DNA of 64,000 nt, from positions 97,368-161,367 of the forward strand of contig PFEF01000006.1 of the NCBI GenBank assembly GCA_002793915.1. The letters are read 5' to 3'. Source of the stretch: Candidatus Ryanbacteria bacterium CG10_big_fil_rev_8_21_14_0_10_43_42 (GTDB lineage: Bacteria > Patescibacteriota > Minisyncoccia > Ryanbacterales > 2-02-FULL-48-12). The notes below the pieces were generated by a model. It had not been told where the DNA came from. It saw only the letters and a program-made list of their open reading frames with translations, and ran no database searches. The position numbers were made by a program, and so were the translations under genes. Within the stretch, counting starts at the first letter, position 1. Each line of letters begins with the position of its first letter. This document shows, piece after piece, positions 9,609 to 55,135 of the stretch.

Positions 9609-9744
9609 TGGACGCACACTCATATTTTGCAAGATCGTTGAAAATCTATTCTATTGTTCCGGTCGAACACGGTGCGCACTTTTTGTGTGCTGTGTTCATA
9701 TTCTGAATATTATAATGAGTAATATCACTATGGTATTTGGATTT

Positions 9745-11215
<1,471 letters not shown>

Positions 11216-11344
11216 TAAGGATATACATCTCATGCTAACGGCATGAGTATGGTCGTTCGAATATTTGCGGATATATGGCAAGTATTTGAAACGGTTTGGT
11301 CGTCACCAATCAGAAAACGACTCCGGAACAATAGAATAGGCGTT

Positions 11345-11386
11345 CAACACAAAAAGCCGCCGTCAAACGGCGGTTTTTTGTGTTGG
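11345..11386 (+). terminator. long perfect hairpin with a T-run in the 16S-tRNA spacer
   Basis: caacacaaaaagccgcc / ggcggttttttgtgttgg, a 17 bp stem with a 7 nt loop. Confidence 0.4.
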
Positions 11387-11544
11387 TGGGAGTAAGTAAA
11401 TGGAATGCAGGAAATGGCAATAATCGTTTATGGGCGGTTATCATATTGAAAAATAGAGTAAAACAGTGTAGGCTATGTTCTATAGATACGGGTGTTCAGC
11501 TCAAGCCGGTTTAATCCGTTCTGAACAAGTGCCTTATAATTAAT

Positions 11545-11618
11545 GGGCGTGTAGCTCAGCTGGTTAGAGCGCGTCACTGATAATGACGAGGTCGGAGGTT
11601 CGAGTCCTCCCACGCCCA
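11545..11618 (+). tRNA. tRNA-Ile (anticodon GAT)
   Basis: Cloverleaf read by hand: acceptor gggcgtg/cacgccc, anticodon loop ctGATaa, T-loop ttcgagt. No encoded CCA. Confidence 0.9.
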
Positions 11619-11628
11619 CAGAATGGAT

Positions 11629-11717
11629 TTAGAGCGGAGAAGAGTAATAGGAATTACTCTTCTCCTGATAACTAGAAAATACCTGTGATATTTTCTAGAG
11701 GTCGGAGGTTCGGAGTA
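11629..11717 (+). pseudogene. degenerate tRNA-Ile-derived element: a copy from the D-arm 3' side to the T-loop, with both anticodon-stem halves replaced by perfect hairpins
   Basis: It shares ttagagcg, ctgataa and a 14 nt exact aggtcggaggttcg with the upstream tRNA-Ile. In place of the anticodon-stem halves it has inserted hairpins gagaagagtaat/attactcttctc and ctagaaaata/tattttctag. Confidence 0.5.
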
Positions 11718-11792
11718 ACGTAATCCAAGTGGACATAAAGATACACACAGTAATAAATGCGCTTCTTGCGTATTTTTTTGTATACTATATCT

Positions 11793-12764
11793 ATGAAGCA
11801 GAATAAATTAAAAATTGGTGTTGTAATGGGCGGACCGTCGAGCGAGCATGATATTTCATTAATGACGGGTAGGAATGTTATAGATACTCTTCGCGGATTA
11901 GGGCATACGGTAACACAGGTATATGTTACCAAATCGGGCAATTGGCTCTATAACAACAGTGCTTCCGCTTTCGATCCGGTAGAGATATGCGCACGTCATG
12001 ATGTTATGTTCAATGCTATGCACGGGGAATATGGTGAGGATGGGCAGGTACAGCAAATTTTTGACAGATGCAATGTGCGGTATACGGGATCTCGCACAAC
12101 GGCGGCGGCACTTGCGATGAACAAAATAATCAGCAAAGATATTTTTAATAAGGCGGGAATCCTTACGCCAAGAGCCGTAGCGTTCGAGCGGAATAATTTT
12201 GATATGAAGGAGGCTCTTTCTCGCGTGCATCTCATGACGGCACCTCCCTGGGTAGTGAAGCCCGCAAGTCGCGGTTCTTCCGTGGGTGTTACCATAGCAC
12301 GCACACTTCCGGGGTTAGCCGACGGTTTGGAAACCGCATTCGGGTATGATAATCATGTTGTAGTGGAAGAATTTATAAAAGGACGGGAGATTACCTGTGG
12401 AGTACTTCAGGATTTTGCCGGAGAGGATGTGCACGCGCTTCACCCGCTGGAGATTATTCCGCCGGACGGAAAGTTCTTTGATTATGAAGTAAAGTATGAT
12501 GGTTCTACAAAAGAAGTTCCAGCACCGTTCTTCGGCGAAATGCTTAAAAATATTAAGGCACAGGCCGTTGCGGCTCATAATGCGCTCGGATGTCGGCATT
12601 ATTCCCGTACGGATATGATTATTAAGGGAACGAAAATATACGTTTTGGAAACGAATACCCTACCGGGACTCACAAGCGAATCGCTTTTCCCGAAACAGGC
12701 GCGATTAGCTAAAATGGAATTTCCGCAGTTACTGGAACATTTGGTGCGTTTGGCAACGGCATAA
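11793..12764 (+). CDS. ddl: D-alanine--D-alanine ligase
   Basis: MKQNKLKIGVVMGGPSSEHDISL N-terminus and an ATP-grasp pattern. The ORF track starts at 11757, but the ATG at 11793 fits the family N-terminus. Confidence 0.8.
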   Translation: MKQNKLKIGVVMGGPSSEHDISLMTGRNVIDTLRGLGHTVTQVYVTKSGNWLYNNSASAFDPVEICARHDVMFNAMHGEYGEDGQVQQIFDRCNVRYTGSRTTAAALAMNKIISKDIFNKAGILTPRAVAFERNNFDMKEALSRVHLMTAPPWVVKPASRGSSVGVTIARTLPGLADGLETAFGYDNHVVVEEFIKGREITCGVLQDFAGEDVHALHPLEIIPPDGKFFDYEVKYDGSTKEVPAPFFGEMLKNIKAQAVAAHNALGCRHYSRTDMIIKGTKIYVLETNTLPGLTSESLFPKQARLAKMEFPQLLEHLVRLATA

Positions 12765-12792
12765 CAGATCTTTTACAAGGAGGAAGTGTTTT

Positions 12793-13536
12793 ATGAGACG
12801 CATGCGATGGCAGAGTTGGGCTTTGGGATTTTCTCTTTTATATATTTTAGTTAAGGGATTTGGTTCATCTGAATATGCGAGTATGGTAACGCCCGCACGC
12901 TTTTATATACAGTCTTATTTTGTAGAAACGCGCCTGGTTGTATACGAAGGGGAATACTGGCGTGTTGTACTACACGAAAAGCAGAATCCGCATTTCTTGC
13001 GGAGCATCGTGCGTTTAAAACGGGTATGCGAATCTCCCGTATGCCTAACGTCTGCTGAAAGGCGAGAACGGGATGAGATAGAACTCGTACTACATACTTT
13101 GGTACTTAGATATGGCGCCACCTACACCAACTTTATGCGTCTTATGAATAATGCTTATCGTTCGCCGATTCCTATGCCGGTAATGCATTATCACTTTATT
13201 CCGCGCTACAAAACCCCATTTTCTTTTGGAGAGATATATTTTCATGATAAGGCGTATGGGCGTCATTATTCTGAAAACGAAGAAAAGCCGGTTCCTCCCG
13301 CACTTATGCTTCTCATAAAAAATATTGTAGGGAAAGAATTTAAAGACCGTATGCCAAAGCCATCCGCAGAGGTGGCTTTTTTCTTGAAAAAAAGGAAGAA
13401 CCATGGTATGGTTTTTTGTAGATTTCAAATTAAAATATTTCGAAATTTACGAGGGCGAATTTCGGTAGCTCATCTGGTAGAGCGGTTTGATATGCCCCCA
13501 GCATATCAAACTTGCACTGCGGAGGGTGGAAAGTAA
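12793..13536 (+). CDS. hypothetical protein (possible HIT-like fold); the 3' end runs into the tRNA-like element
   Basis: 247 aa ORF with no family recognised with confidence. The last 27 codons are translated from the tRNA-Ala-like sequence, so the true C-terminus or the gene's integrity is uncertain. Confidence 0.3.
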   Translation: MRRMRWQSWALGFSLLYILVKGFGSSEYASMVTPARFYIQSYFVETRLVVYEGEYWRVVLHEKQNPHFLRSIVRLKRVCESPVCLTSAERRERDEIELVLHTLVLRYGATYTNFMRLMNNAYRSPIPMPVMHYHFIPRYKTPFSFGEIYFHDKAYGRHYSENEEKPVPPALMLLIKNIVGKEFKDRMPKPSAEVAFFLKKRKNHGMVFCRFQIKIFRNLRGRISVAHLVERFDMPPAYQTCTAEGGK

Positions 13537-13566
13537 CGGGGTTACTTTCCACGGTTCGAGTCCTAG
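13465..13566 (+). pseudogene. degenerate tRNA-Ala-derived element with two perfect hairpin insertions
   Basis: Its D-arm gtagctcatctggtagagcg, the cttgcactgcgg segment and the T-loop ggttcgagtcc are identical to tRNA-Ala 150 nt downstream. The 5' anticodon-stem half is replaced by tttgatatgc/gcatatcaaa, and gtggaaagtaa/ttactttccac is inserted before the T-arm. No acceptor pairing is present. Confidence 0.5.
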
Positions 13567-13611
13567 GAGGGTAAAAGACTTTAATAATAGGTTTAGAGAC
13601 GTAAATAATAT

Positions 13612-13684
13612 GGGCCCGTAGCTCATCTGGTAGAGCGCCGCACTTGCACTGCGGAGGTGGCAGGTTCGAGTCCTGTCGGGTCCA
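13612..13684 (+). tRNA. tRNA-Ala (anticodon TGC)
   Basis: Acceptor gggcccg/cgggtcc with a G3:U70 pair, anticodon loop ctTGCac, T-loop ttcgagt. Confidence 0.9.
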
Positions 13685-13812
13685 CATCGTAAATCTCAAT
13701 AACCGTTTTTAACCTCCCGCTGTCCGCGTGCCGGCAAGGCGGAAAGAGGGAGTTTTTGGTTTGCTTAGCCGCTTTCTTGTTTACAAAACCCCTTAAATCC
13801 GATATGATTTAA

Positions 13813-13848
13813 ATATAGATATTCCATACTTTATATTATAATCTATAT
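13813..13848 (+). promoter_or_regulatory. inverted repeat (atatagat ... atctatat) spanning a TATAAT-like box upstream of the XRE gene; candidate operator
   Basis: 8 bp inverted-repeat arms separated by about 20 nt, 25-60 nt upstream of the ATG at 13872. Confidence 0.3.
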
Positions 13849-13871
13849 ACCAATTTATATAACAGAAAGTT

Positions 13872-14069
13872 ATGAAAATTGCAGATAACCTCAAAAAAAT
13901 AAGAGCGGAAAAGAGCTACTCTCTCGAAAAAGTGGCGCGGTTAGCTGATTTGTCGCTCAATACGGTTGTAAAGATAGAAAGCGGGGTCAATAAGAATCCT
14001 ACTATCGATACTCTTTCCAAAATCGCCAAGGCGCTTGAGGTTGATGTTGATGATTTAATACAGAAGTAG
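13872..14069 (+). CDS. XRE-family helix-turn-helix regulator (controller/C-protein-like)
   Basis: 65 aa with an HTH_XRE pattern (SLEKVARLADLSLNTVVKIESG). The stop codon lies 2 nt before the methyltransferase ATG. Confidence 0.7.
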   Translation: MKIADNLKKIRAEKSYSLEKVARLADLSLNTVVKIESGVNKNPTIDTLSKIAKALEVDVDDLIQK

Positions 14070-14071
14070 TT

Positions 14072-15190
14072 ATGAACACCCAAACCTTAAACATGGGCCT
14101 TAACAAGGCTGGTCAAGCAAAGAAAGATGAGTTTTATACTCAGCTCGTTGATATTGAAAAAGAGTTGAAGCATTACAAAAATCAATTTCGAGGCAAGGTT
14201 GTTTATTGCAACTGCGACGATCCGTTTGAGAGTAACTTTTTTAAATATTTCGCTGGTAATTTTAATGCACTGGGATTGAAAAAACTAATTGCGACGAGCT
14301 ACAAGCCGTCACCTATTGCAAATACACAGCTTGGACTATTTGGTGACGAAGAAGTGCTGACAAAATCCAAAGGCCGTCCAAAAGTGACTGCCAATAAATT
14401 TATCATCAACGAAGTTGATGATTTTGATGGCGACGGTGCTTTTGATTTACGTGATGTCGCTGAACAGCTCAAAGCAAACAAAAACAACGAATGGGCACCG
14501 TTAGATAGCGAGGGAGATTTTAGAAGTCCAGAAAGTATAGAGTTGCTTAAACAAGCTGACATTGTAGTGACAAATCCGCCATTTTCACTCTTTCGTGAGT
14601 ATGTAGCCCAACTTGTTGAATACGATAAGAAATTTTTAATACTTGGGGACCAAAACGCCATAACATACAAGGAGATTTTTAAGTTAATTAGCGACGATAA
14701 AATATGGCTCGGTTACGATAATGGAGGCACGAAATGGTTTCAAGTCCCGATGGATTACGACATTCCAACTGAATCAAGAAAGAAAATCGTAAACGGCGTG
14801 AAGTATTTCAGTATGGGAAGAATTATGTGGTTTACAAATCTTGAGACCACAAAACGTCACGAGAGACTGACTTTGTATAAAACATACACCGCACAAGAAT
14901 ATCCTAAATACGACAACTATCCTGCAATAAACGTTGATAAAGTCTCTGATATTCCAATGGACTACGATGGAATAATGGGTGTCCCTATTACTTTCATCGA
15001 TAAATACAATCCAGAGCAGTTTGAAATATTAGGCATTACTGATAGACAAAACACGTCTGGTCTCCGAACGAAAAAATATACAGAAGCGGACAATCCTAAA
15101 TACAACGACTTAAATGCTCGTAGCGTGATAAAAACTGGCAATACTTACAAAGCTGTGTACGCGCGACTTTTAATAAGAAATAAAAAATAA
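14072..15190 (+). CDS. N6-adenine DNA methyltransferase (NPPF motif; EcoRI-methylase-like family)
   Basis: VVTNPPFSL is catalytic motif IV of amino-methyltransferases. The N-terminal DEFYT..CDDPFES region is as in the EcoRI-methylase family, recalled from memory. Translationally coupled to its neighbours. Confidence 0.55.
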   Translation: MNTQTLNMGLNKAGQAKKDEFYTQLVDIEKELKHYKNQFRGKVVYCNCDDPFESNFFKYFAGNFNALGLKKLIATSYKPSPIANTQLGLFGDEEVLTKSKGRPKVTANKFIINEVDDFDGDGAFDLRDVAEQLKANKNNEWAPLDSEGDFRSPESIELLKQADIVVTNPPFSLFREYVAQLVEYDKKFLILGDQNAITYKEIFKLISDDKIWLGYDNGGTKWFQVPMDYDIPTESRKKIVNGVKYFSMGRIMWFTNLETTKRHERLTLYKTYTAQEYPKYDNYPAINVDKVSDIPMDYDGIMGVPITFIDKYNPEQFEILGITDRQNTSGLRTKKYTEADNPKYNDLNARSVIKTGNTYKAVYARLLIRNKK

Positions 15191-15192
15191 TT

Positions 15193-16296
15193 ATGAAAAT
15201 TGAACTACACAGAATCAAAATACGTGAGGTAGTCAATGGCTACGCAGACAATCATGAAGAAGGTGTGGTTGCTTATGGTGGCAAGCTCGATATTCGACCT
15301 AAATATCAACGTGAATTTGTCTATAAAGATAAACAGCGCGATGCGGTCATTGATACCGTAAAGAAAAATTTTCCGCTCAATGTGATGTATTGGGTAAAAA
15401 GCGACGACGATAGCTTTGAGGTGTTAGACGGACAGCAAAGAACAATCAGTATCGGGCAATTTGCGAATGGAGATTTTTCGGTGGACTTTAATGGTCGCAC
15501 TGCTATGTTCCACAACCTTACTAAAGAAGAACAGGGGCAAATCCTCGATTACGAATTGATGGTGTACTTCTGTGAAGGAACAGATAAGGAAAAGTTAGAT
15601 TGGTTCAAGATTATCAACATCGCAGGCGAACGTCTTACCGATCAAGAATTGCGAAATGCTGTTTACACTGGCACATGGCTTTCGGACGCAAAACTTAAGT
15701 TTAGTAAATCTGGCTGCGCGGCATATCTTTTGGCAAATGATGGCGGCGCATTGCTTACAGGTTCACCAATTAGACAAGAGTACCTAGAAACTGCACTCTC
15801 GTGGATCAATAGCGGCGAAATTGCCGAATATATGGCAAAGCATCAGCACGACAAGAATGCCGATGAGCTGTGGAAGTATTTCCAAAATGTTATTGCGTGG
15901 GTGCGTCAGACATTTCCGAACTATCGCAAAGAAATGGCGCACGTAAATTGGGGCGAGTTGTACAACCAATTCAAGGATAAAAAGCTAAACGCCAAGAAAC
16001 TTGAAACAGAAGTTGCAGAATTTATGAAAGACGAAGATGTAACAAAAAAATCTGGTATCTATCCGTATGTTTTGACGCGAAATGAGCGGCATTTAAATAT
16101 CCGTTCATTTACTGACAATATGAAGCGAGAGGCGTACGAGAGGCAGAAAGGTATTTGTGCATTCTGCAAAGAAAAGTTTGATATTTCTGATATGGAAGCT
16201 GATCACATTACCCCTTGGCATGAGGGCGGCAAAACTAACGCAAAAAATTGCCAGTTGTTGTGCAAAGACGATAACCGAAGGAAATCTGGAAAGTAA
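15193..16296 (+). CDS. DUF262 (ParB-like, DGQQR) domain fused to a C-terminal HNH endonuclease
   Basis: LDGQQRTISIGQF is the DUF262 hallmark. The C-terminus CAFCKEKF...ADHITPWHEGGKTNAKNCQLLCKDDNRRK is an HNH motif. Its start overlaps the methyltransferase stop (taattATG). Confidence 0.7.
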   Translation: MKIELHRIKIREVVNGYADNHEEGVVAYGGKLDIRPKYQREFVYKDKQRDAVIDTVKKNFPLNVMYWVKSDDDSFEVLDGQQRTISIGQFANGDFSVDFNGRTAMFHNLTKEEQGQILDYELMVYFCEGTDKEKLDWFKIINIAGERLTDQELRNAVYTGTWLSDAKLKFSKSGCAAYLLANDGGALLTGSPIRQEYLETALSWINSGEIAEYMAKHQHDKNADELWKYFQNVIAWVRQTFPNYRKEMAHVNWGELYNQFKDKKLNAKKLETEVAEFMKDEDVTKKSGIYPYVLTRNERHLNIRSFTDNMKREAYERQKGICAFCKEKFDISDMEADHITPWHEGGKTNAKNCQLLCKDDNRRKSGK

Positions 16297-16306
16297 CACT
16301 AACACC

Positions 16307-19300
16307 ATGAGGCTACCTCCCCAAACAATACGAACACTGTTAGAGGCAATTTTTTGGGGATCTGCTGTTTCGTTTACCTTTATTCTTGGATCCGCTATTG
16401 GATCATGGTTTTCGTTGAATATTCTCCCAGACTATTCATGGTTGATTACTCGTAAGGGCGAGGCATTTTATATTTTTGTATTCGCTCTTTTATTCTCTTA
16501 TCTTTACTTTCGAGATTTTCTACAAGTAGTATGGAAGGTCATAAAGAGTTCGAGATTTGATATTTTTATTGCGGCAGGATTAAGTGCATTGGTGGTCTTT
16601 AGCAATAAAAATATACTTTCTACATACATACAGGAGCATGTAATGGAACTAAACAGCGACAGCGTATTACTTTTCTTTATTATTGTATTTATTTTGTCGC
16701 TATCATGCGTACTGTATGTGATACTGCAAATGTTTAACCGCAGAAAGAAAGTGGACTCAAAATTTGCAAATGATAACCCAATTAGGGATTCCGAAGGCGA
16801 TCTCCTGGATTTTAGTACAAAAGCAAATTCGTTCGCAGAGAATATCTTTCATGCTTCACAGGGTAAGGGTTTAGTGTTTGGTGTAGATGCCCCTTGGGGA
16901 TCTGGTAAGTCATCATTTTTAAATCTCTGTAAGAGGTATTGGGAAATCAAACATAAAAACGAGTTAATTGTGTACGAATTTAGTCCCTTACACTATTCAA
17001 CAGATGCTAATTTACTTGAGAGATTTGTGGATGGTCTAATAAAAGAAATACAAAAGAATGTTTTTATTCCTGAGATACGCCCACTTTTTTCTCAATATTC
17101 TAAGCTCATCAAGATAGTAAATGGATTTAGTATTTTTGGGGTAAAAATTCCAGAATTTGCTAGTAGGCGCACCATTAACGATGTACATAATGATTTAGAG
17201 TGTGCACTAAATGGAATCAATAGGAGAATAATCGTTATTGTAGACGACCTAGACCGCATAGAATTAAAAGAGATTAAGAACGTATTGTTTGCAATACGTG
17301 AAAGTTTTAAATTCCCCAATATTTCGTATGTCTTATGTTACGACACAGAGAATATAAATGCATTGGAGGCAGATACGCCAGAGATTGAGACGGTGAATGA
17401 ATTCCTGGAGAAATTCGTCAATATTAAGATAAGTATTTTCCTCGATAAGAAAAACCTAGAGAATTTCGTTTCAAAAGAATTGAAAAAGGTAATTGAGGAC
17501 AAAACAACAGATCCAGAACTTGTTGCTGTCGTATTAAGCGGACTACGCGACATATTTCAATCACCTGAATTTCATCGTTATACGTCCTTTGTCGGAGACA
17601 TTAGAAAATTGAAGCGACTTGTGAATACGGTGGTTCTTTTAGAGTTGTATAAAGTAAACTTCGATAAAGCAGATATTGATAAGTTTGATTTAGCTCATTT
17701 ACTACTGATTTATATTAATTATCCAAGTATTTTCAGAAAAATTTATAACACCGAAACTGCAGGTGGTTATGGTTTTTTCTCTGCAGTTGGTCCCTATGAC
17801 AGTGAGTTTTATCCAAAAGATAAGAAGAGAAACAATGGAGAAAGGAGCGACACATATGAAAATTCTGATGTATACAACGAATATCTAGAGGACTTAACAG
17901 ATAATCAAAAGTTTCTCATTGAGCAGATATTTAATGTCACTAGGCGACTTAAGCGAGCAAAAAATAATGATAGTGCAAACCACTACATCAATAATGAAGA
18001 TTCATATCGAAAGATAGACAGTGTATCGGAAGACATAAAAACTTCCCTGGCATGTTTCAATGGTGACAAATTTACTGGTTCTGGTCGCAATCTAGAAGAT
18101 TATTTGCGTTTAATTGCTCATCTAGCGCCGCCAGAAGAAGAAAAGCAATTTGCACCTTTCAAAAACTGGCGAGACAAGATCATTAGCGAAGATATAACTA
18201 TAGAACAACTTTTTAATCAACCAGAATTTTCTGTTGAACTTGGCGAGCAAAAGCGACAAAAACTTTGGCGTCTCATTGTAAACAACACAAGGAAACTGAA
18301 TCAAAATGTTGCTGGTAATTTAATAAGGTATCTGACACAAAATATATCTAAATATTCCCTGTTTGAAAACGAGGTTCTTGGCGTAGGACTACGTCATCAT
18401 GATCTTCCTTATTTTTTGGTACGACTGCTTAATGATGCTGGATATAAAGGTAGCATGAATGGTAATAATACGGAGGAAAACATCAAAGAAATCGCTGATT
18501 GGATTTTCGGTGAAGACACCCACAAAGATGAAGGAATACTAGACGCCTTGTTAGAAGATGAGCGAGGTATTCTTGGTCTATATGATTCACTTAGTTTGAG
18601 ATTGATCTGCTGTTCCGATAGAGGTGGCGATATTTTCAACGTATCTAGAGCAATAGCAAAACACGGTAATAAAGAAGCTCCTACTGCGGGGGACACGAGA
18701 ATCATTGTAAAAGAAGAAATGCGTGAAATTTCACAGAAAATTTTTGGTGTGTTTAAATCACGATACATTGACAAAAAGATTAACATTTTTTCGGAAGTTC
18801 AAAAGTTGTCTTTGGATAATATAACGGGAGAATATTCCACTTATGTGCGAAATCAAGTGAAAGGCGGTGTTATATCTGAAGATAAGTTACAGGCAGATGT
18901 TGAATATACAAAATTTAATGCTTTAGGTTTTATTGTTTACCAGCTAGGTGATGACCAGATAAATCACGGGGTTGGTTGTGGTCTTTATGATCCTCTCGGA
19001 AATGCTGACAAAGGAATGATCAAAAACTTGATGAATAAGTATCTATTTGAGAGGTGCTTTAATCCGACAACCAGTGAGAATAATTATGAGAATCTTTTAA
19101 GTTTGCTTTTGAGGAATATTCCATTTGATGCTCTCAGGGAAGATCATTTTGGTAAAATTCCTGACTTTAAGTTAAAAACGATTGTTGGTGTTCTTGATAT
19201 ACAAACTCTCTCTGAATTTTGGAAGGAACATAGAGAAAAAATCAAGAAACTAAACTTTGAGAATTCAGGTAAAAAAATATTTATGGGAACACGATATGTA

Positions 19301-19414
19301 AATTCAGATTCTGAGGATATTTTTGCGTCCTATCAAAACGACTTGCCACGTGTATATAAGGCACTCGATGATTATATCGATAACCCTACTGGCAAAGGGG
19401 AGTCGCCCGCATAG
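16307..19414 (+). CDS. KAP-family P-loop NTPase with an N-terminal 4-5 helix transmembrane region
   Basis: Walker A GVDAPWGSGKSSFLNL and Walker B IIVIVDDLDR within a KAP-like region, preceded by about 180 aa of transmembrane helices. The ORF track begins at 16157, but the ATG at 16307 sits just after the upstream stop. Confidence 0.7.
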   Translation: MRLPPQTIRTLLEAIFWGSAVSFTFILGSAIGSWFSLNILPDYSWLITRKGEAFYIFVFALLFSYLYFRDFLQVVWKVIKSSRFDIFIAAGLSALVVFSNKNILSTYIQEHVMELNSDSVLLFFIIVFILSLSCVLYVILQMFNRRKKVDSKFANDNPIRDSEGDLLDFSTKANSFAENIFHASQGKGLVFGVDAPWGSGKSSFLNLCKRYWEIKHKNELIVYEFSPLHYSTDANLLERFVDGLIKEIQKNVFIPEIRPLFSQYSKLIKIVNGFSIFGVKIPEFASRRTINDVHNDLECALNGINRRIIVIVDDLDRIELKEIKNVLFAIRESFKFPNISYVLCYDTENINALEADTPEIETVNEFLEKFVNIKISIFLDKKNLENFVSKELKKVIEDKTTDPELVAVVLSGLRDIFQSPEFHRYTSFVGDIRKLKRLVNTVVLLELYKVNFDKADIDKFDLAHLLLIYINYPSIFRKIYNTETAGGYGFFSAVGPYDSEFYPKDKKRNNGERSDTYENSDVYNEYLEDLTDNQKFLIEQIFNVTRRLKRAKNNDSANHYINNEDSYRKIDSVSEDIKTSLACFNGDKFTGSGRNLEDYLRLIAHLAPPEEEKQFAPFKNWRDKIISEDITIEQLFNQPEFSVELGEQKRQKLWRLIVNNTRKLNQNVAGNLIRYLTQNISKYSLFENEVLGVGLRHHDLPYFLVRLLNDAGYKGSMNGNNTEENIKEIADWIFGEDTHKDEGILDALLEDERGILGLYDSLSLRLICCSDRGGDIFNVSRAIAKHGNKEAPTAGDTRIIVKEEMREISQKIFGVFKSRYIDKKINIFSEVQKLSLDNITGEYSTYVRNQVKGGVISEDKLQADVEYTKFNALGFIVYQLGDDQINHGVGCGLYDPLGNADKGMIKNLMNKYLFERCFNPTTSENNYENLLSLLLRNIPFDALREDHFGKIPDFKLKTIVGVLDIQTLSEFWKEHREKIKKLNFENSGKKIFMGTRYVNSDSEDIFASYQNDLPRVYKALDDYIDNPTGKGESPA

Positions 19415-24558: not shown

Positions 24559-27432
24559 ATGGCAAAAAAAGCATCAAAAAAGAGTACGTCACGCAAAAAG
24601 AGCGTATTGTCGAAGGCAGAACTACCCCCCCTCGGCAATGCCCATGCTATACAGGTGCGTGGCGCACGTGCGCACAATTTGAAAAATGTCTCTGTTGATA
24701 TTCCGCGTGATAAATTTGTTGTTATTACGGGACTTTCCGGATCAGGGAAATCATCGCTTGCTTTCGACACCGTTTATGCCGAAGCCGAACGACGGTTTGT
24801 TGAATCTCTTTCTGCGTATGCGCGTCAGTTCTTGGGTGTAAAAGAAAAGCCGGATGTGGATTCCATAGAAGGCCTTTCACCCGCTATTGCCATTGATCAA
24901 AAAAGTGTTTCGCGTAATCCGCGTTCTACCGTAGGCACCATCACGGAGATTTATGATTATCTGCGTATCTTATATGCGCGTATTGGTATTCCGCATTGTC
25001 CGGAGTGCGGAAAACCCGTTCGCCGGCAAAGCGTGGATGAAATTATCGCCCGTATTCTTTCCATGCCGGTCCGTACACAGGCGATATTATTAGCTCCCAT
25101 TGTGCGCGGCCGCAAAGGAGAGCATAAGGGGGTGCTTGAAGAAATACAAAAGAAAGGATTTGCCCGCGTGCGGATTGATGGTGTCGTGATACGAACGGAG
25201 GAAGCGGTGGATAAAGCGCTTGATCCGAAAAGAAAACATAGTATTGAGGTTGTGGTGGATCGTATTGTGGTGGACGATGGACTGGATCGTCCGCGTCTTG
25301 CTGATTCATTGGAGACTGCCCTTAAAATAGGAAAAGGTATTGCGGCGGTGGATACCGGAAAAGAGGAACTTATGTTCTCGGAACATTTTGCATGTCCCGA
25401 TTGCGGTGTTTCGTTGCCGGAATTGGAGCCGCGGCTTTTTTCGTTTAACAGTCCGTATGGTGCTTGTCCGGCATGTACCGGCATTGGACATACGCTTGAA
25501 ATTGATGCCGATTTAGTATTTCCCAATAAGACACTCACGCTTGCGGAAGGTGCAATACAGCCGTGGGCGAAAGCATCGCATAGGGTGGGGCGCCAGTCAT
25601 GGTATTGGTGGATGCTGGAAGATGTAAGCGAGCGGCATAAATTTTCTTTGCATACTCCTATAAAAGATCTCCCAAAGTCGGCGGTGAATGTTATTTTAAA
25701 TGGCGACGACACCGATTCGAAAGAAGGAAAACAGGGGTTTGAGGGTGTGATTTCGAACTTAAAGCGGAGGTGGAAAGAAACAGATTCGGAATGGACGCGT
25801 GCCGAAATTGAAAAATATATGCGTTCGCAGGTATGTCCGGCATGTAATGGAGCACGCCTTAAGCCGGAATCGTTGGGAGTTAAAATTAATAAGAAAAATA
25901 TTGCAGATATTGGCCGCATGGACGTGCAATCCGCGGCACCGTTTTTTGAAGATATTCTTGAGCAGTCATCTTTCGAGCAGAAAAAGATTACACGTCCTCT
26001 TGTTAAAGAAATTGTGGGTCGTCTTACGTTTCTTATTGATGTTGGTCTTGAATACGTTACCCTTGATAGGGAATCCACAACTCTTTCGGGCGGAGAAGCG
26101 CAACGCGTGCGTCTTGCCACGCAGATAGGATCCCGTCTTACGGGAGTTACTTATGTATTGGATGAGCCCTCTATCGGACTTCATCCGCGGGACCACGGAC
26201 GTCTTATCGAAACACTCAAAAAATTACGAGATTTAGGAAATACTATTCTGGTGGTTGAGCATGATCGTGAGACAATGCAGGAAGCCGATTGGATTATTGA
26301 TCTGGGTCCGGGTGCCGGAAAGCATGGGGGTATGATAATTTTTGAGGGTACGGCAGAGGAGCTTTTGAAGGCATCAACGCTTACCGGGCATTATCTTTCT
26401 CATAGAAAACATATAGCGATACCGGTAAGCACGCCACCGAAAAGCAAGAAAACATATCTCACCATAAAGGGAGCTTCGGGGAATAATTTAAAAAACATTA
26501 CAACAAAAATTCCATTGGGTGAATTTGTGTGTATTGCGGGCGTTTCCGGATCCGGTAAAAGTACGCTTGTAAATGATACGCTGGGAAGAGCGCTTATGCA
26601 GTATTTCTATCGTTCAAAGGCGGAACCGTCGCCCCATAAAAGTATAGAGGGACTTGAGCATATCGATAAGGTTGTTATTGTGGATCAGTCTCCTATTGGG
26701 CGTACGCCGCGATCAAATCCGGCAACATACACGGGAGCTTTTTCTTTCATAAGGGAAGCGTTTGCGCGTACAAGAGAGGCACGCTCGCGGGGATATAAAG
26801 CGGGACGATTCAGCTTTAATGTAAAAGGAGGGCGATGTGAAGTATGTGAGGGGCAGGGAGTGCGAAAGATAGAAATGTATTTTCTCCCCGATATTTATAT
26901 CGAGTGCGAAGAATGTCGCGGTAAGCGGTATAACCAAGAAGCGCTTTCCATTTTATATAATGAACGCACGATAGCGGATGTACTTGAAATGCCCATTGAA
27001 GAAGCGTATATATTTTTTAAAGATATTCCGGCAATTGCCTCACGCCTTGAAACGCTTGTTCATGTTGGTTTGGGGTATATGCACCTGGGACAGCCGGCAA
27101 CCACTCTTTCCGGCGGGGAGGCACAGCGTGTAAAATTGGCAACGGAGCTTGCAAAAAAGGCAACGGGAAAAACGTTGTATATTTTGGACGAGCCAACCAC
27201 GGGGCTTCATTTTGAGGATATCAGGCGACTTTTAGAGGTACTGCGCGCCCTTGTGGAAAAGGGAAATAGTGTTCTTGTAATTGAACATAATACGGATGTT
27301 CTTAAAAATGCCGATTGGATTATTGAATTAGGTCCCGAAGGAGGATCCGCGGGAGGGATAATTGTTGCCGAAGGAACACCGAAAGATATCGCAAGTACAA
27401 AGAAATCCCCTACTCAAAAATGGCTTATATAA
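24559..27432 (+). CDS. uvrA: excinuclease ABC subunit A
   Basis: Two ABC ATPase modules with zinc-finger CxxC pairs, LSGGEAQR signatures, and 957 aa length. Confidence 0.95.
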
Positions 27433-34462: not shown

Positions 34463-34489
34463 GAGGCATGGTTATCGTAACCATGCCTC
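34463..34489. terminator. perfect 12 bp hairpin between the convergent gatB and miaA genes
   Basis: gaggcatggtta-tcg-taaccatgcctc. Confidence 0.4.
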
Positions 34490-54167: not shown

Positions 54168-54203
54168 GCAAGGTCGGTTAATTGGTAACCGACCTTGTTC
54201 TTT
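54168..54203 (+). repeat. terminator hairpin repeat, copy 1 (ggtcggttaa-ttgg-ttaaccgacc followed by ttgttcttt); copy 2 is at 55100..55135
   Basis: A roughly 35 nt segment repeated identically after each of the two paralogous genes. Confidence 0.5.
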
Positions 54204-55099: not shown

Positions 55100-55135
55100 A
55101 CGGTCGGTTAATTGGTAACCGACCTTGTTCTTTCA
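55100..55135 (+). repeat. terminator hairpin repeat, copy 2
   Basis: acggtcggttaattggtaaccgaccttgttcttt, identical to 54168..54203. Confidence 0.5.

Follow-up and report, generated by a model that had tools for sequence, protein, structure and literature searches.

In the 64-kb stretch of Candidatus Ryanbacteria contig PFEF01000006.1 analyzed here (the window, whose positions give all coordinates below), degenerate copies stand beside the intact tRNA-Ala and tRNA-Ile genes, and we refer to these copies as the Ala shadow and the Ile shadow. The Ala shadow is most likely a recurring scar, a tRNA pseudogene relic combined with small palindromes, and not a new kind of tRNA. In its specific form, to which we give about an even chance, our explanation is that the Ala shadow is a tRNA-Ala pseudogene at the ancestral gene position, now a leader, that was disabled by small palindromic replacements from a lineage-wide process. 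We establish its anatomy, the loss of its tRNA fold, the positional homology of its promoter and leader, and the recurrence of such elements in relatives (L-numbers denote the related loci or assemblies compared). Judging from these comparisons, gene fragments and small palindromes accumulate at the tRNA-Ile and tRNA-Ala loci throughout the clade.

Anatomy of the Ala shadow

Within 13465-13564, the Ala shadow retains three collinear blocks of 20, 16, and 12 nt that are identical to the intact tRNA-Ala at 48/48 positions, in agreement with the original prediction of a degenerate copy with exact D-arm, anticodon, and T-loop segments. Single blocks gave blastn-short E-values of 2e-5 and 0.005 when about 200 kb was searched. 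The parts of the locus are as follows:

13441..13464, + strand: hairpin 0 (cgaaatt / aatttcg), weaker, 7 bp
13465..13484, + strand: D-arm block GTAGCTCATCTGGTAGAGCG, 20/20 identical to 13618-13637, which are tRNA-Ala positions 7-26
13485..13511, + strand: hairpin 1, GTTTGATATGC-CCCCA-GCATATCAAAC, 11 bp with a 5-nt loop, in place of the 5' anticodon-stem strand CCGCA
13510..13525, + strand: anticodon block ACTTGCACTGCGGAGG, 16/16 identical to 13642-13657
13526..13552, + strand: hairpin 2, GTGGAAAGTAAC-GGG-GTTACTTTCCAC, 12 bp with a 3-nt loop, in place of TGGCA (positions 47-51)
13553..13564, + strand: T block GGTTCGAGTCCT, 12/12 identical to 13663-13674
13565..13577, + strand: decayed T-stem end and 3' acceptor strand, aggagggtaaaag vs. 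gtcgggtccaca, as read from the sequence
13578..13611, + strand: spacer from the dead copy to the working gene
13612..13685, + strand: tRNA-Ala(TGC), intact, 66 bits

The 16-nt block starts at A31, the final base of the 5' anticodon-stem strand, and runs through the anticodon loop and the 3' anticodon-stem strand into the variable loop. The 12-nt block begins with the final two bases of the 5' T-stem strand and continues through the T loop into the 3' T-stem strand. Hairpins 1 and 2, both perfect and both 27 nt long, sit between the three blocks. Hairpin 1 takes the place of the 5' anticodon-stem strand, as had been proposed; hairpin 2, previously described as an insertion in the variable region, instead replaces positions 47-51, covering the last part of the variable loop and the initial three bases of the 5' T-stem strand.

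The lack of acceptor pairing noted earlier also holds up, as the acceptor remnants cannot pair, and the loop and 3' arm of hairpin 0 break up the remnant of the 5' acceptor strand (gggc..cg). These remnants and the flanks are far more diverged than the blocks (roughly 60% by eye). Set against 48/48 identity within the blocks, this points to change by block replacement. The repeats gagggcgaa and gagggtaaa had been taken for a possible target duplication. Our alignment instead identifies the "gaggg" repeats as the decayed remains of the acceptor strands, 5' GGGCCCG and 3' CGGGTCCA, which look alike because GGGCCC is self-complementary. The element is therefore a nearly full-length copy of tRNA-Ala with no target-site duplication.

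Between the Ala shadow and the intact gene are only 34-45 nt, with no gene in the gap. About 13 different perfect hairpins with stems of >=9 bp occur in the window, compared with 0-7 in shuffled sequence; four of them lie in the two shadows, and three more are ordinary terminators. One matching assembly (L003, Logan SRR6240789) is 100% identical over 11574-13657 and another (L002, ENA ERZ27293412) is identical from 12159 to 14164. The Ala shadow sequence is present in three independent assemblies, and an assembly artifact is excluded. No strain variant or empty site was found: L002 and L003 are identical across the Ala shadow, P0001 and P0004 gave no further contig, and no closer relative covering this region was available.

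Loss of the tRNA fold

No tRNA was called on the Ala shadow by ARAGORN or by Rfam RF00005 at E<=10, and none was called after the hairpins had been removed in silico or, at ARAGORN default thresholds, when introns were allowed. The hairpin-free Ala shadow lacks the 5' strand of both the anticodon stem and the T stem, and its acceptor is unpaired. No cloverleaf is possible because in three helices (acceptor, anticodon, and T), a self-contained hairpin breaks up or replaces one strand. Under these models, the Ala shadow cannot fold as a tRNA, whether its hairpins are kept or removed.

We therefore consider it extremely improbable that the Ala shadow is an intron-bearing, split, or permuted tRNA gene that yields a functional tRNA after hairpin removal. 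A relaxed ARAGORN run (-ps90) with introns did return a poor "tRNA-Arg" model across the region, but hairpin removal leaves the two 5' strands and the acceptor pairing missing, the default ARAGORN and Rfam results are negative, and the intact tRNA-Ala is 36-47 nt away. A cmscan of 11200-13800 against the Rfam 15 families (tmRNA, Y-RNA-like, T-box, and others) at E<=10 found only the two tRNAs and noise. A CRISPR array was rejected as well, given that the hairpins differ from each other and form no identical repeats, and so were operator sites, given that the four shadow hairpins are all different, unlike the palindromes at 54172 and 55102.

Predicted promoter and leader

Two signals precede the Ala shadow:

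13356..13379, + strand: terminator-like hairpin plus T run at the end of the ddl-HIT unit, inside the called 247-amino acid open reading frame (ORF)
13384..13412, + strand: promoter-like site TTGAAA-17-TATGGT, TG-extended (consensus scan and alignment with relatives)

An alignment with L010, L025, and L006 has the T-run, TTGAnn, GTATnGTTTT, and the leader "gtagatttcaaa" all in common. The window promoter and leader align with those directly before tRNA-Ala in L010 and L006, and in L025, the aligned promoter and leader precede that locus's own Ala shadow. Because it lies directly behind a promoter and leader that precede tRNA-Ala in relatives, the Ala shadow most likely occupies the ancestral gene position. 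In the consensus scan, the only promoter-like match between the Ala shadow and the gene would initiate inside the tRNA. With the ancestral promoter upstream and the intact gene 153 nt farther down, the Ala shadow is probably transcribed as a leader. The predicted fold of 13418-13700 has the leader as local hairpins, with the tRNA cloverleaf still forming.

In the mechanism we propose, the working tRNA-Ala would be a second copy 153 nt downstream that arose by tandem duplication; the copy could have originated by plain tandem duplication or through insertion-with-replacement by mobile DNA as in L025. The dead copy would be cotranscribed as a 5' leader of roughly 190 nt, which RNase P would remove by cutting at 13612. 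Short palindromic replacements, and not gradual decay by point changes, would have inactivated it, with one strand affected in three of four helices, and these replacements would have cut the direct repeat to blocks of <=20 nt, protecting the duplication from recombinational collapse. The hairpins would come from a lineage-wide process placing small palindromes in tRNA-like DNA, a route that we infer for those of the window, and the Ala shadow itself would have no function.

The Ile shadow and related loci

The neighboring tRNA-Ile displays the same syndrome of hairpin substitution, as the original prediction had claimed:

11490..11517, + strand: decayed 5' tRNA-Ile fragment gggtgttcagctcaagccggtttaatcc, about 28 nt upstream of the intact tRNA-Ile
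11545..11619, + strand: tRNA-Ile(GAT), intact (tRNA-model call)
11625..11712, + strand: Ile shadow, with a D-loop/3' D-stem block, a hairpin (11636-11665), CTGATAA, a hairpin (11672-11698), and a T block (11698-11712)
11755..11779, + strand: terminator-like hairpin after the Ile shadow

With this terminator downstream, the Ile shadow would form a 3' trailer. Its first hairpin (Ile hairpin 1) stands where the 5' anticodon-stem strand would be, just like hairpin 1 of the Ala shadow. Orthologs of the Ile shadow occur in L004, L010, and L019, and Ile hairpin 1 is orthologous in the window and these three loci, with a constant length of 30 nt and 94% pairing. In L004, the hairpin is intact and the surrounding tRNA-like blocks are ~15% decayed. 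A 5' tRNA-Ile fragment lies upstream of the gene in both L006 and the window, and L006 812-838 is a cleaner ortholog of the relic at 11490-11517. A processing stem bracketing ddl-HIT was considered and rejected, with the duplex energy of Ile trailer and Ala leader at -62.1, no better than chance, vs. a shuffled mean of -60.4 (sd 5.7).

Ddl-anchored genome and metagenome scans gave 20 related loci. The order 16S, tRNA-Ile, ddl, tRNA-Ala is common to relatives with Ddl 58-70% identical, and ddl stands between tRNA-Ile and tRNA-Ala across the whole clade. The window's own arrangement, with an HIT gene and tRNA-Ala, was found in 0/20 of the Ddl-anchored loci; the HIT-like protein has only three homologs, whose contigs stop short of the shadow region. 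The contigs of the closest relatives, L004 and L018 (Ddl 78-79%), likewise end before the Ala-shadow region. None of the relatives compared contains an ortholog of the window's Ala hairpins, and the Ala shadow is absent in L007/L014, L010, and L013; with several relatives lacking one, an Ala shadow is not required.

The fullest parallel comes from L025 (Ddl 65-66% identical by BLASTP and global alignment), which has an Ile shadow directly after tRNA-Ile and a 5'-half Ala shadow upstream of tRNA-Ala. A native-looking promoter, TTGAAT-17-TATAGT, stands in front of this Ala shadow, and its hairpins differ from the window's in sequence and position. Both L025 shadows contain a 22-nt hairpin unit, CG-CCNNNTC-ATTC/GAAT-GANNNGG-CG, found in four copies and in both orientations only within these two shadows. 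The units differ by compensatory changes in the stem and have been added, with nothing replaced, at a duplicated CG. In L025 8666-9134, a small GIY-YIG gene (Pfam 8e-15) lies exactly between the 5'-half Ala shadow and the intact tRNA-Ala, and in L012 (2478-3092), GIY-YIG homologs are on both sides of tRNA-Ala. Judged by sequence, the gene may be of a homing type linked to this tRNA.

Across the relatives, fragments have a consistent polarity, 5' pieces being upstream (L006, L012, and the Ala shadow of L025) and 3' pieces downstream (L004, L008, L009, L010, L019, and the Ile shadow of L025). In L008, L009, and L019, a hairpin-rich stretch is followed by a copy of the tRNA 3' end. A 44-nt quasi-palindrome occurs in L010 as two inverted copies (231-274 and 899-942; 98% complementary), one in the 16S-tRNA spacer and one where the Ile shadow has its T arm. 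At about 206-250, L012 has a related copy within a tRNA-Ile fragment, making three copies over L010/L012, two of them inside tRNA-Ile fragments. Some hairpin families have thus been mobile in these relatives. Downstream of ddl, L020 has a hairpin of ~190 nt (1369-1563; fold z-score of -5.5), the apex of which, gaataatatgc-tgggg-gcatattattc, contains the 17-nt core of hairpin 1 (ATATGCCCCCAGCATAT) in the opposite orientation.

In L010, L019, L006, and L012, the fragment differs in sequence type from the intact gene next to it, and such mismatches show gene replacement. Two types of tRNA-Ile(GAT) exist in the clade (L010 761-835, L012 50-125, and L019 1-40 vs. window 11545-11619), and L010 and L019 have a CCA-encoding type B tRNA-Ile yet a type-A shadow. 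The tRNA-Ala type of the window is closer to that of the distant L009 than to those of nearer relatives. From these sequence types, both genes suggest tRNA gene exchange between lineages.

Because the shadow pattern recurs in relatives (both Ile and Ala shadows in L025; Ile shadows in L004, L010, and L019), a shared process is likely, and this part of the earlier proposal of a shared mechanism or element family stands. The other part, a single family within the window genome, is not supported, as the four window hairpins share no sequence with each other and have no second copy in the 64 kb.

Origin of the hairpins and alternative explanations

Perfect hairpins in tRNA-like relics account for all five in the window shadows, 4/4 of the L025 units, and 2/3 in L010/L012. 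Hairpins are far more concentrated in such relics than neutral tolerance alone predicts, and the responsible process therefore either favors tRNA-like helices or works on tRNA genes or their transcripts. Among the 20 related loci, the window hairpins have no second copies except for the hairpin 1 core in L020. Viral contigs gave 0 matches for hairpin 2, the L025 double hairpin, and the L010 palindrome; the hairpin 1 core had 3 matches, judged to be about chance level for a 17-mer (not computed). Two possible sources of the window hairpins were rejected. A uvrA template for hairpin 2 (25764-25781, gcggaggtggaaagaaac, vs. the shadow junction gcggagggtggaaagtaac) is not significant because ~1.7% of random window 19-mers hit equally well and there are eight junctions. 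The likeness of the hairpin 1 loop, CCCCA, to the original strand, CCGCA, was treated as coincidence because the other three hairpins show nothing similar.

Several observations weigh against our explanation of the Ala shadow as a functionless pseudogene disabled by a lineage-wide process. The four window hairpins have no sequence in common and no second copy in 64 kb, and because no second copy was found, their mobility is unproven. They also replace exactly 5 nt each, vs. simple insertion in L025. Zero substitutions in 48 nt beside three structural changes calls for rapid generation of palindromes, gene conversion, or selection on the blocks. In Ile hairpin 1, 7/13 pairs have changed on both sides across four lineages, a value reached by 0/500 shuffles, and a purely neutral relic does not predict that pairing would be kept in this way. 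The lineages with persisting shadows have Ddl only 64-78% identical and compact genomes, and the L010 shadow preserves 18/18 bases of a tRNA-Ile type that the neighboring gene no longer has.

The covariation of Ile hairpin 1 is, at the level of sequence comparison, the strongest argument that at least some shadow hairpins are maintained. This upkeep could reflect selection on RNA or DNA structure, arm-to-arm correction of the palindrome, or the spread of tRNA modules between lineages. In one alternative, the shadows would be functional cis-acting RNA, with the Ala shadow as a tRNA-derived structured leader, its Ile counterpart as a trailer, and the hairpins under selection. Such an RNA might assist modular precursor folding, protect against nucleases, guide processing, or mimic tRNA loops for a tRNA-binding factor. 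Besides the 7/13 compensatory pairs and the constant 30-nt length in four lineages, it would account for the intact L004 hairpin amid ~15% decayed tRNA-like blocks, for the location of shadows inside tRNA transcription units (in promoter-gene or gene-terminator intervals), and for their persistence in compact genomes. Still, we find this reading doubtful. The Ala hairpins have no ortholog in relatives and those of L025 are different and placed elsewhere, the surviving tRNA parts differ from Ile to Ala shadow and from lineage to lineage, an Ala shadow is missing in several relatives, and there is no Rfam match. Moreover, arm-to-arm correction at the DNA level or transfer of whole tRNA modules would mimic covariation.

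It is also unlikely, in our judgment, that the Ala shadow is the scar of mobile DNA that entered the tRNA gene with its own replacement copy, displaced the native gene, and was since deleted to 34-45 nt. Much in the relatives fits such a history: the GIY-YIG gene between the Ala shadow and the intact gene of L025, where the native-looking promoter stands before the shadow; the GIY-YIG homologs flanking tRNA-Ala in L012; the differing types of fragment and intact gene in L010, L019, L006, and L012; and a 5'-upstream/3'-downstream polarity as expected of insertion-with-replacement. Fragments of tRNA genes from integration are also a known, widespread class (PMC9897764), and in the window, a defense island follows tRNA-Ala. 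However, the window's shadow and gene are of the same sequence type (48/48 in blocks), and the shadow is nearly full length rather than a half. No element, integrase, or endonuclease gene lies between the copies, the window has no GIY-YIG gene, and no distal tRNA-Ala fragment lies at the downstream end of the island; in all 64 kb, no other match of >=10 nt to the 3' part of tRNA-Ala exceeded chance 10-mers. The hairpins inside the copy would be left unexplained as well.

A more novel possibility, which we hold only tentatively and think improbable, is that the hairpins represent a new class of minimal (18-30 nt) palindromic elements or a palindrome-writing process homing to tRNA-like helices, or else a clade-specific family of tRNA-derived leader/trailer RNA. 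If the homing palindromes were real, dead tRNA copies would be sinks for such elements; if the leader/trailer RNA were real, it would take part in the folding or processing of tRNA precursors in CPR bacteria.

Genomic context

The window belongs to a tiny CPR/Patescibacteria genome of the Parcubacteria group. Locally, the gene order is trmD, 16S rRNA, tRNA-Ile, ddl, HIT-like ORF, tRNA-Ala, and the defense island, with the following coordinates for the genes not listed above:

9744-11215: 16S rRNA, preceded by trmD in gene order
11793-12764: ddl
12793-13536: HIT-like ORF

A strong terminator (11345-11385) lies downstream of the 16S rRNA. No 23S rRNA was found in the 64 kb, and the rRNA genes are unlinked in the window genome. 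The defense island comes directly after tRNA-Ala (13872-19414) and encodes an HTH protein, an EcoRI-type adenine methylase, a GmrSD_N+HNH nuclease, and a KAP NTPase. The strain variant L002 diverges after 14164, inside the methylase gene.

The HIT-like ORF is called at 244-247 amino acids only because it reads through the terminator hairpin and the tRNA-Ala promoter into the Ala shadow, most of which it covers. In L004, the ortholog of the hairpin at 13356..13379 is directly followed by a stop codon, and for this reason, the last ~50-55 residues of the called ORF are probably not real protein.

Two further sets of palindromes were seen in the window. An identical perfect palindrome, GGTCGGTTA-ATTGG-TAACCGACC, occurs at 54172-54194 and 55102-55124, each time just upstream of a gene, and looks like the operator of one regulator. 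An isolated perfect 27-nt hairpin, GAGGCATGGTTA-TCG-TAACCATGCCTC, at 34463-34489 belongs to the size class of the shadow hairpins and has no T run and no tRNA-like flank.

Implications and comparison with known systems

Relics of this kind have practical consequences, as gene callers translate the tRNA relic into the C-terminus of a 247-amino acid protein, and such tRNA fragments can confuse tRNA counts in metagenome-assembled genomes. They also mark the tRNA-Ile and tRNA-Ala of a broken-up rRNA locus as turnover hot spots in bacteria that are usually deemed static and streamlined. The concentration of the hairpins and the upkeep of one of them across four lineages point to either a tiny, unrecognized palindromic mobile or mutational process favoring tRNA helices or a selected leader/trailer structure.

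Several known systems resemble parts of what we observed. Phage T4 SegB is a free-standing GIY-YIG homing endonuclease at tRNA loci, comparable to the GIY-YIG gene beside tRNA-Ala and a fragment in L025 and beside tRNA-Ala in L012. However, the window has no such gene, and the protein of the relatives is only an 87-amino acid predicted catalytic domain. The 3'ETS(leuZ) of E. coli is a tRNA-precursor spacer acting as an RNA sponge. Like it, the shadows are non-tRNA precursor segments, and the Ile shadow has a hairpin, a single-stranded stretch, and a terminator, but the shadows are known from sequence alone and conserved only within the clade.

As for the hairpins, quasi-palindrome or template-switch mutation (the Ripley model) can create or perfect a short inverted repeat at a single stroke. 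Hairpin 0 has the look of an insertion that completed complementarity with pre-existing upstream sequence, but in hairpins 1 and 2, neither arm is pre-existing local sequence. REP/BIME sequences, Correia elements, and Rickettsia palindromic elements are small palindromic or MITE-like repeats, the last of which insert in genes, including RNA genes. Short hairpin insertions in repeat families are shared with such REP/MITE-like elements, namely the 22-nt family of L025 (four copies, CG duplicated) and the 44-nt family of L010/L012 (three copies). By contrast, the units here are far smaller (18-30 nt), the window hairpins are all different, single-copy in 64 kb, and replace 5 nt without target duplication, and no transposase (RAYT/TnpA) was seen.

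Finally, tRNA gene fragments left by mobile-element integration were reportedly described by Reiter in 1989 and Williams in 2002. The shadows resemble such att-type fragments in being partial tRNA copies in direct orientation beside an intact gene, and the polarity and the type mismatch fit in some relatives. Fragments of that type, however, are contiguous and kilobases from the gene, whereas the Ala shadow is hairpin-interrupted, nearly full length, and 36-47 nt away with no intervening element. Such integration fragments (attL/attR duplicates) form a known and widespread class, reviewed in PMC9897764. Although the Ala shadow has neither the contiguous fragment nor the intervening element, att-site tRNA fragments are the closest known class to it.

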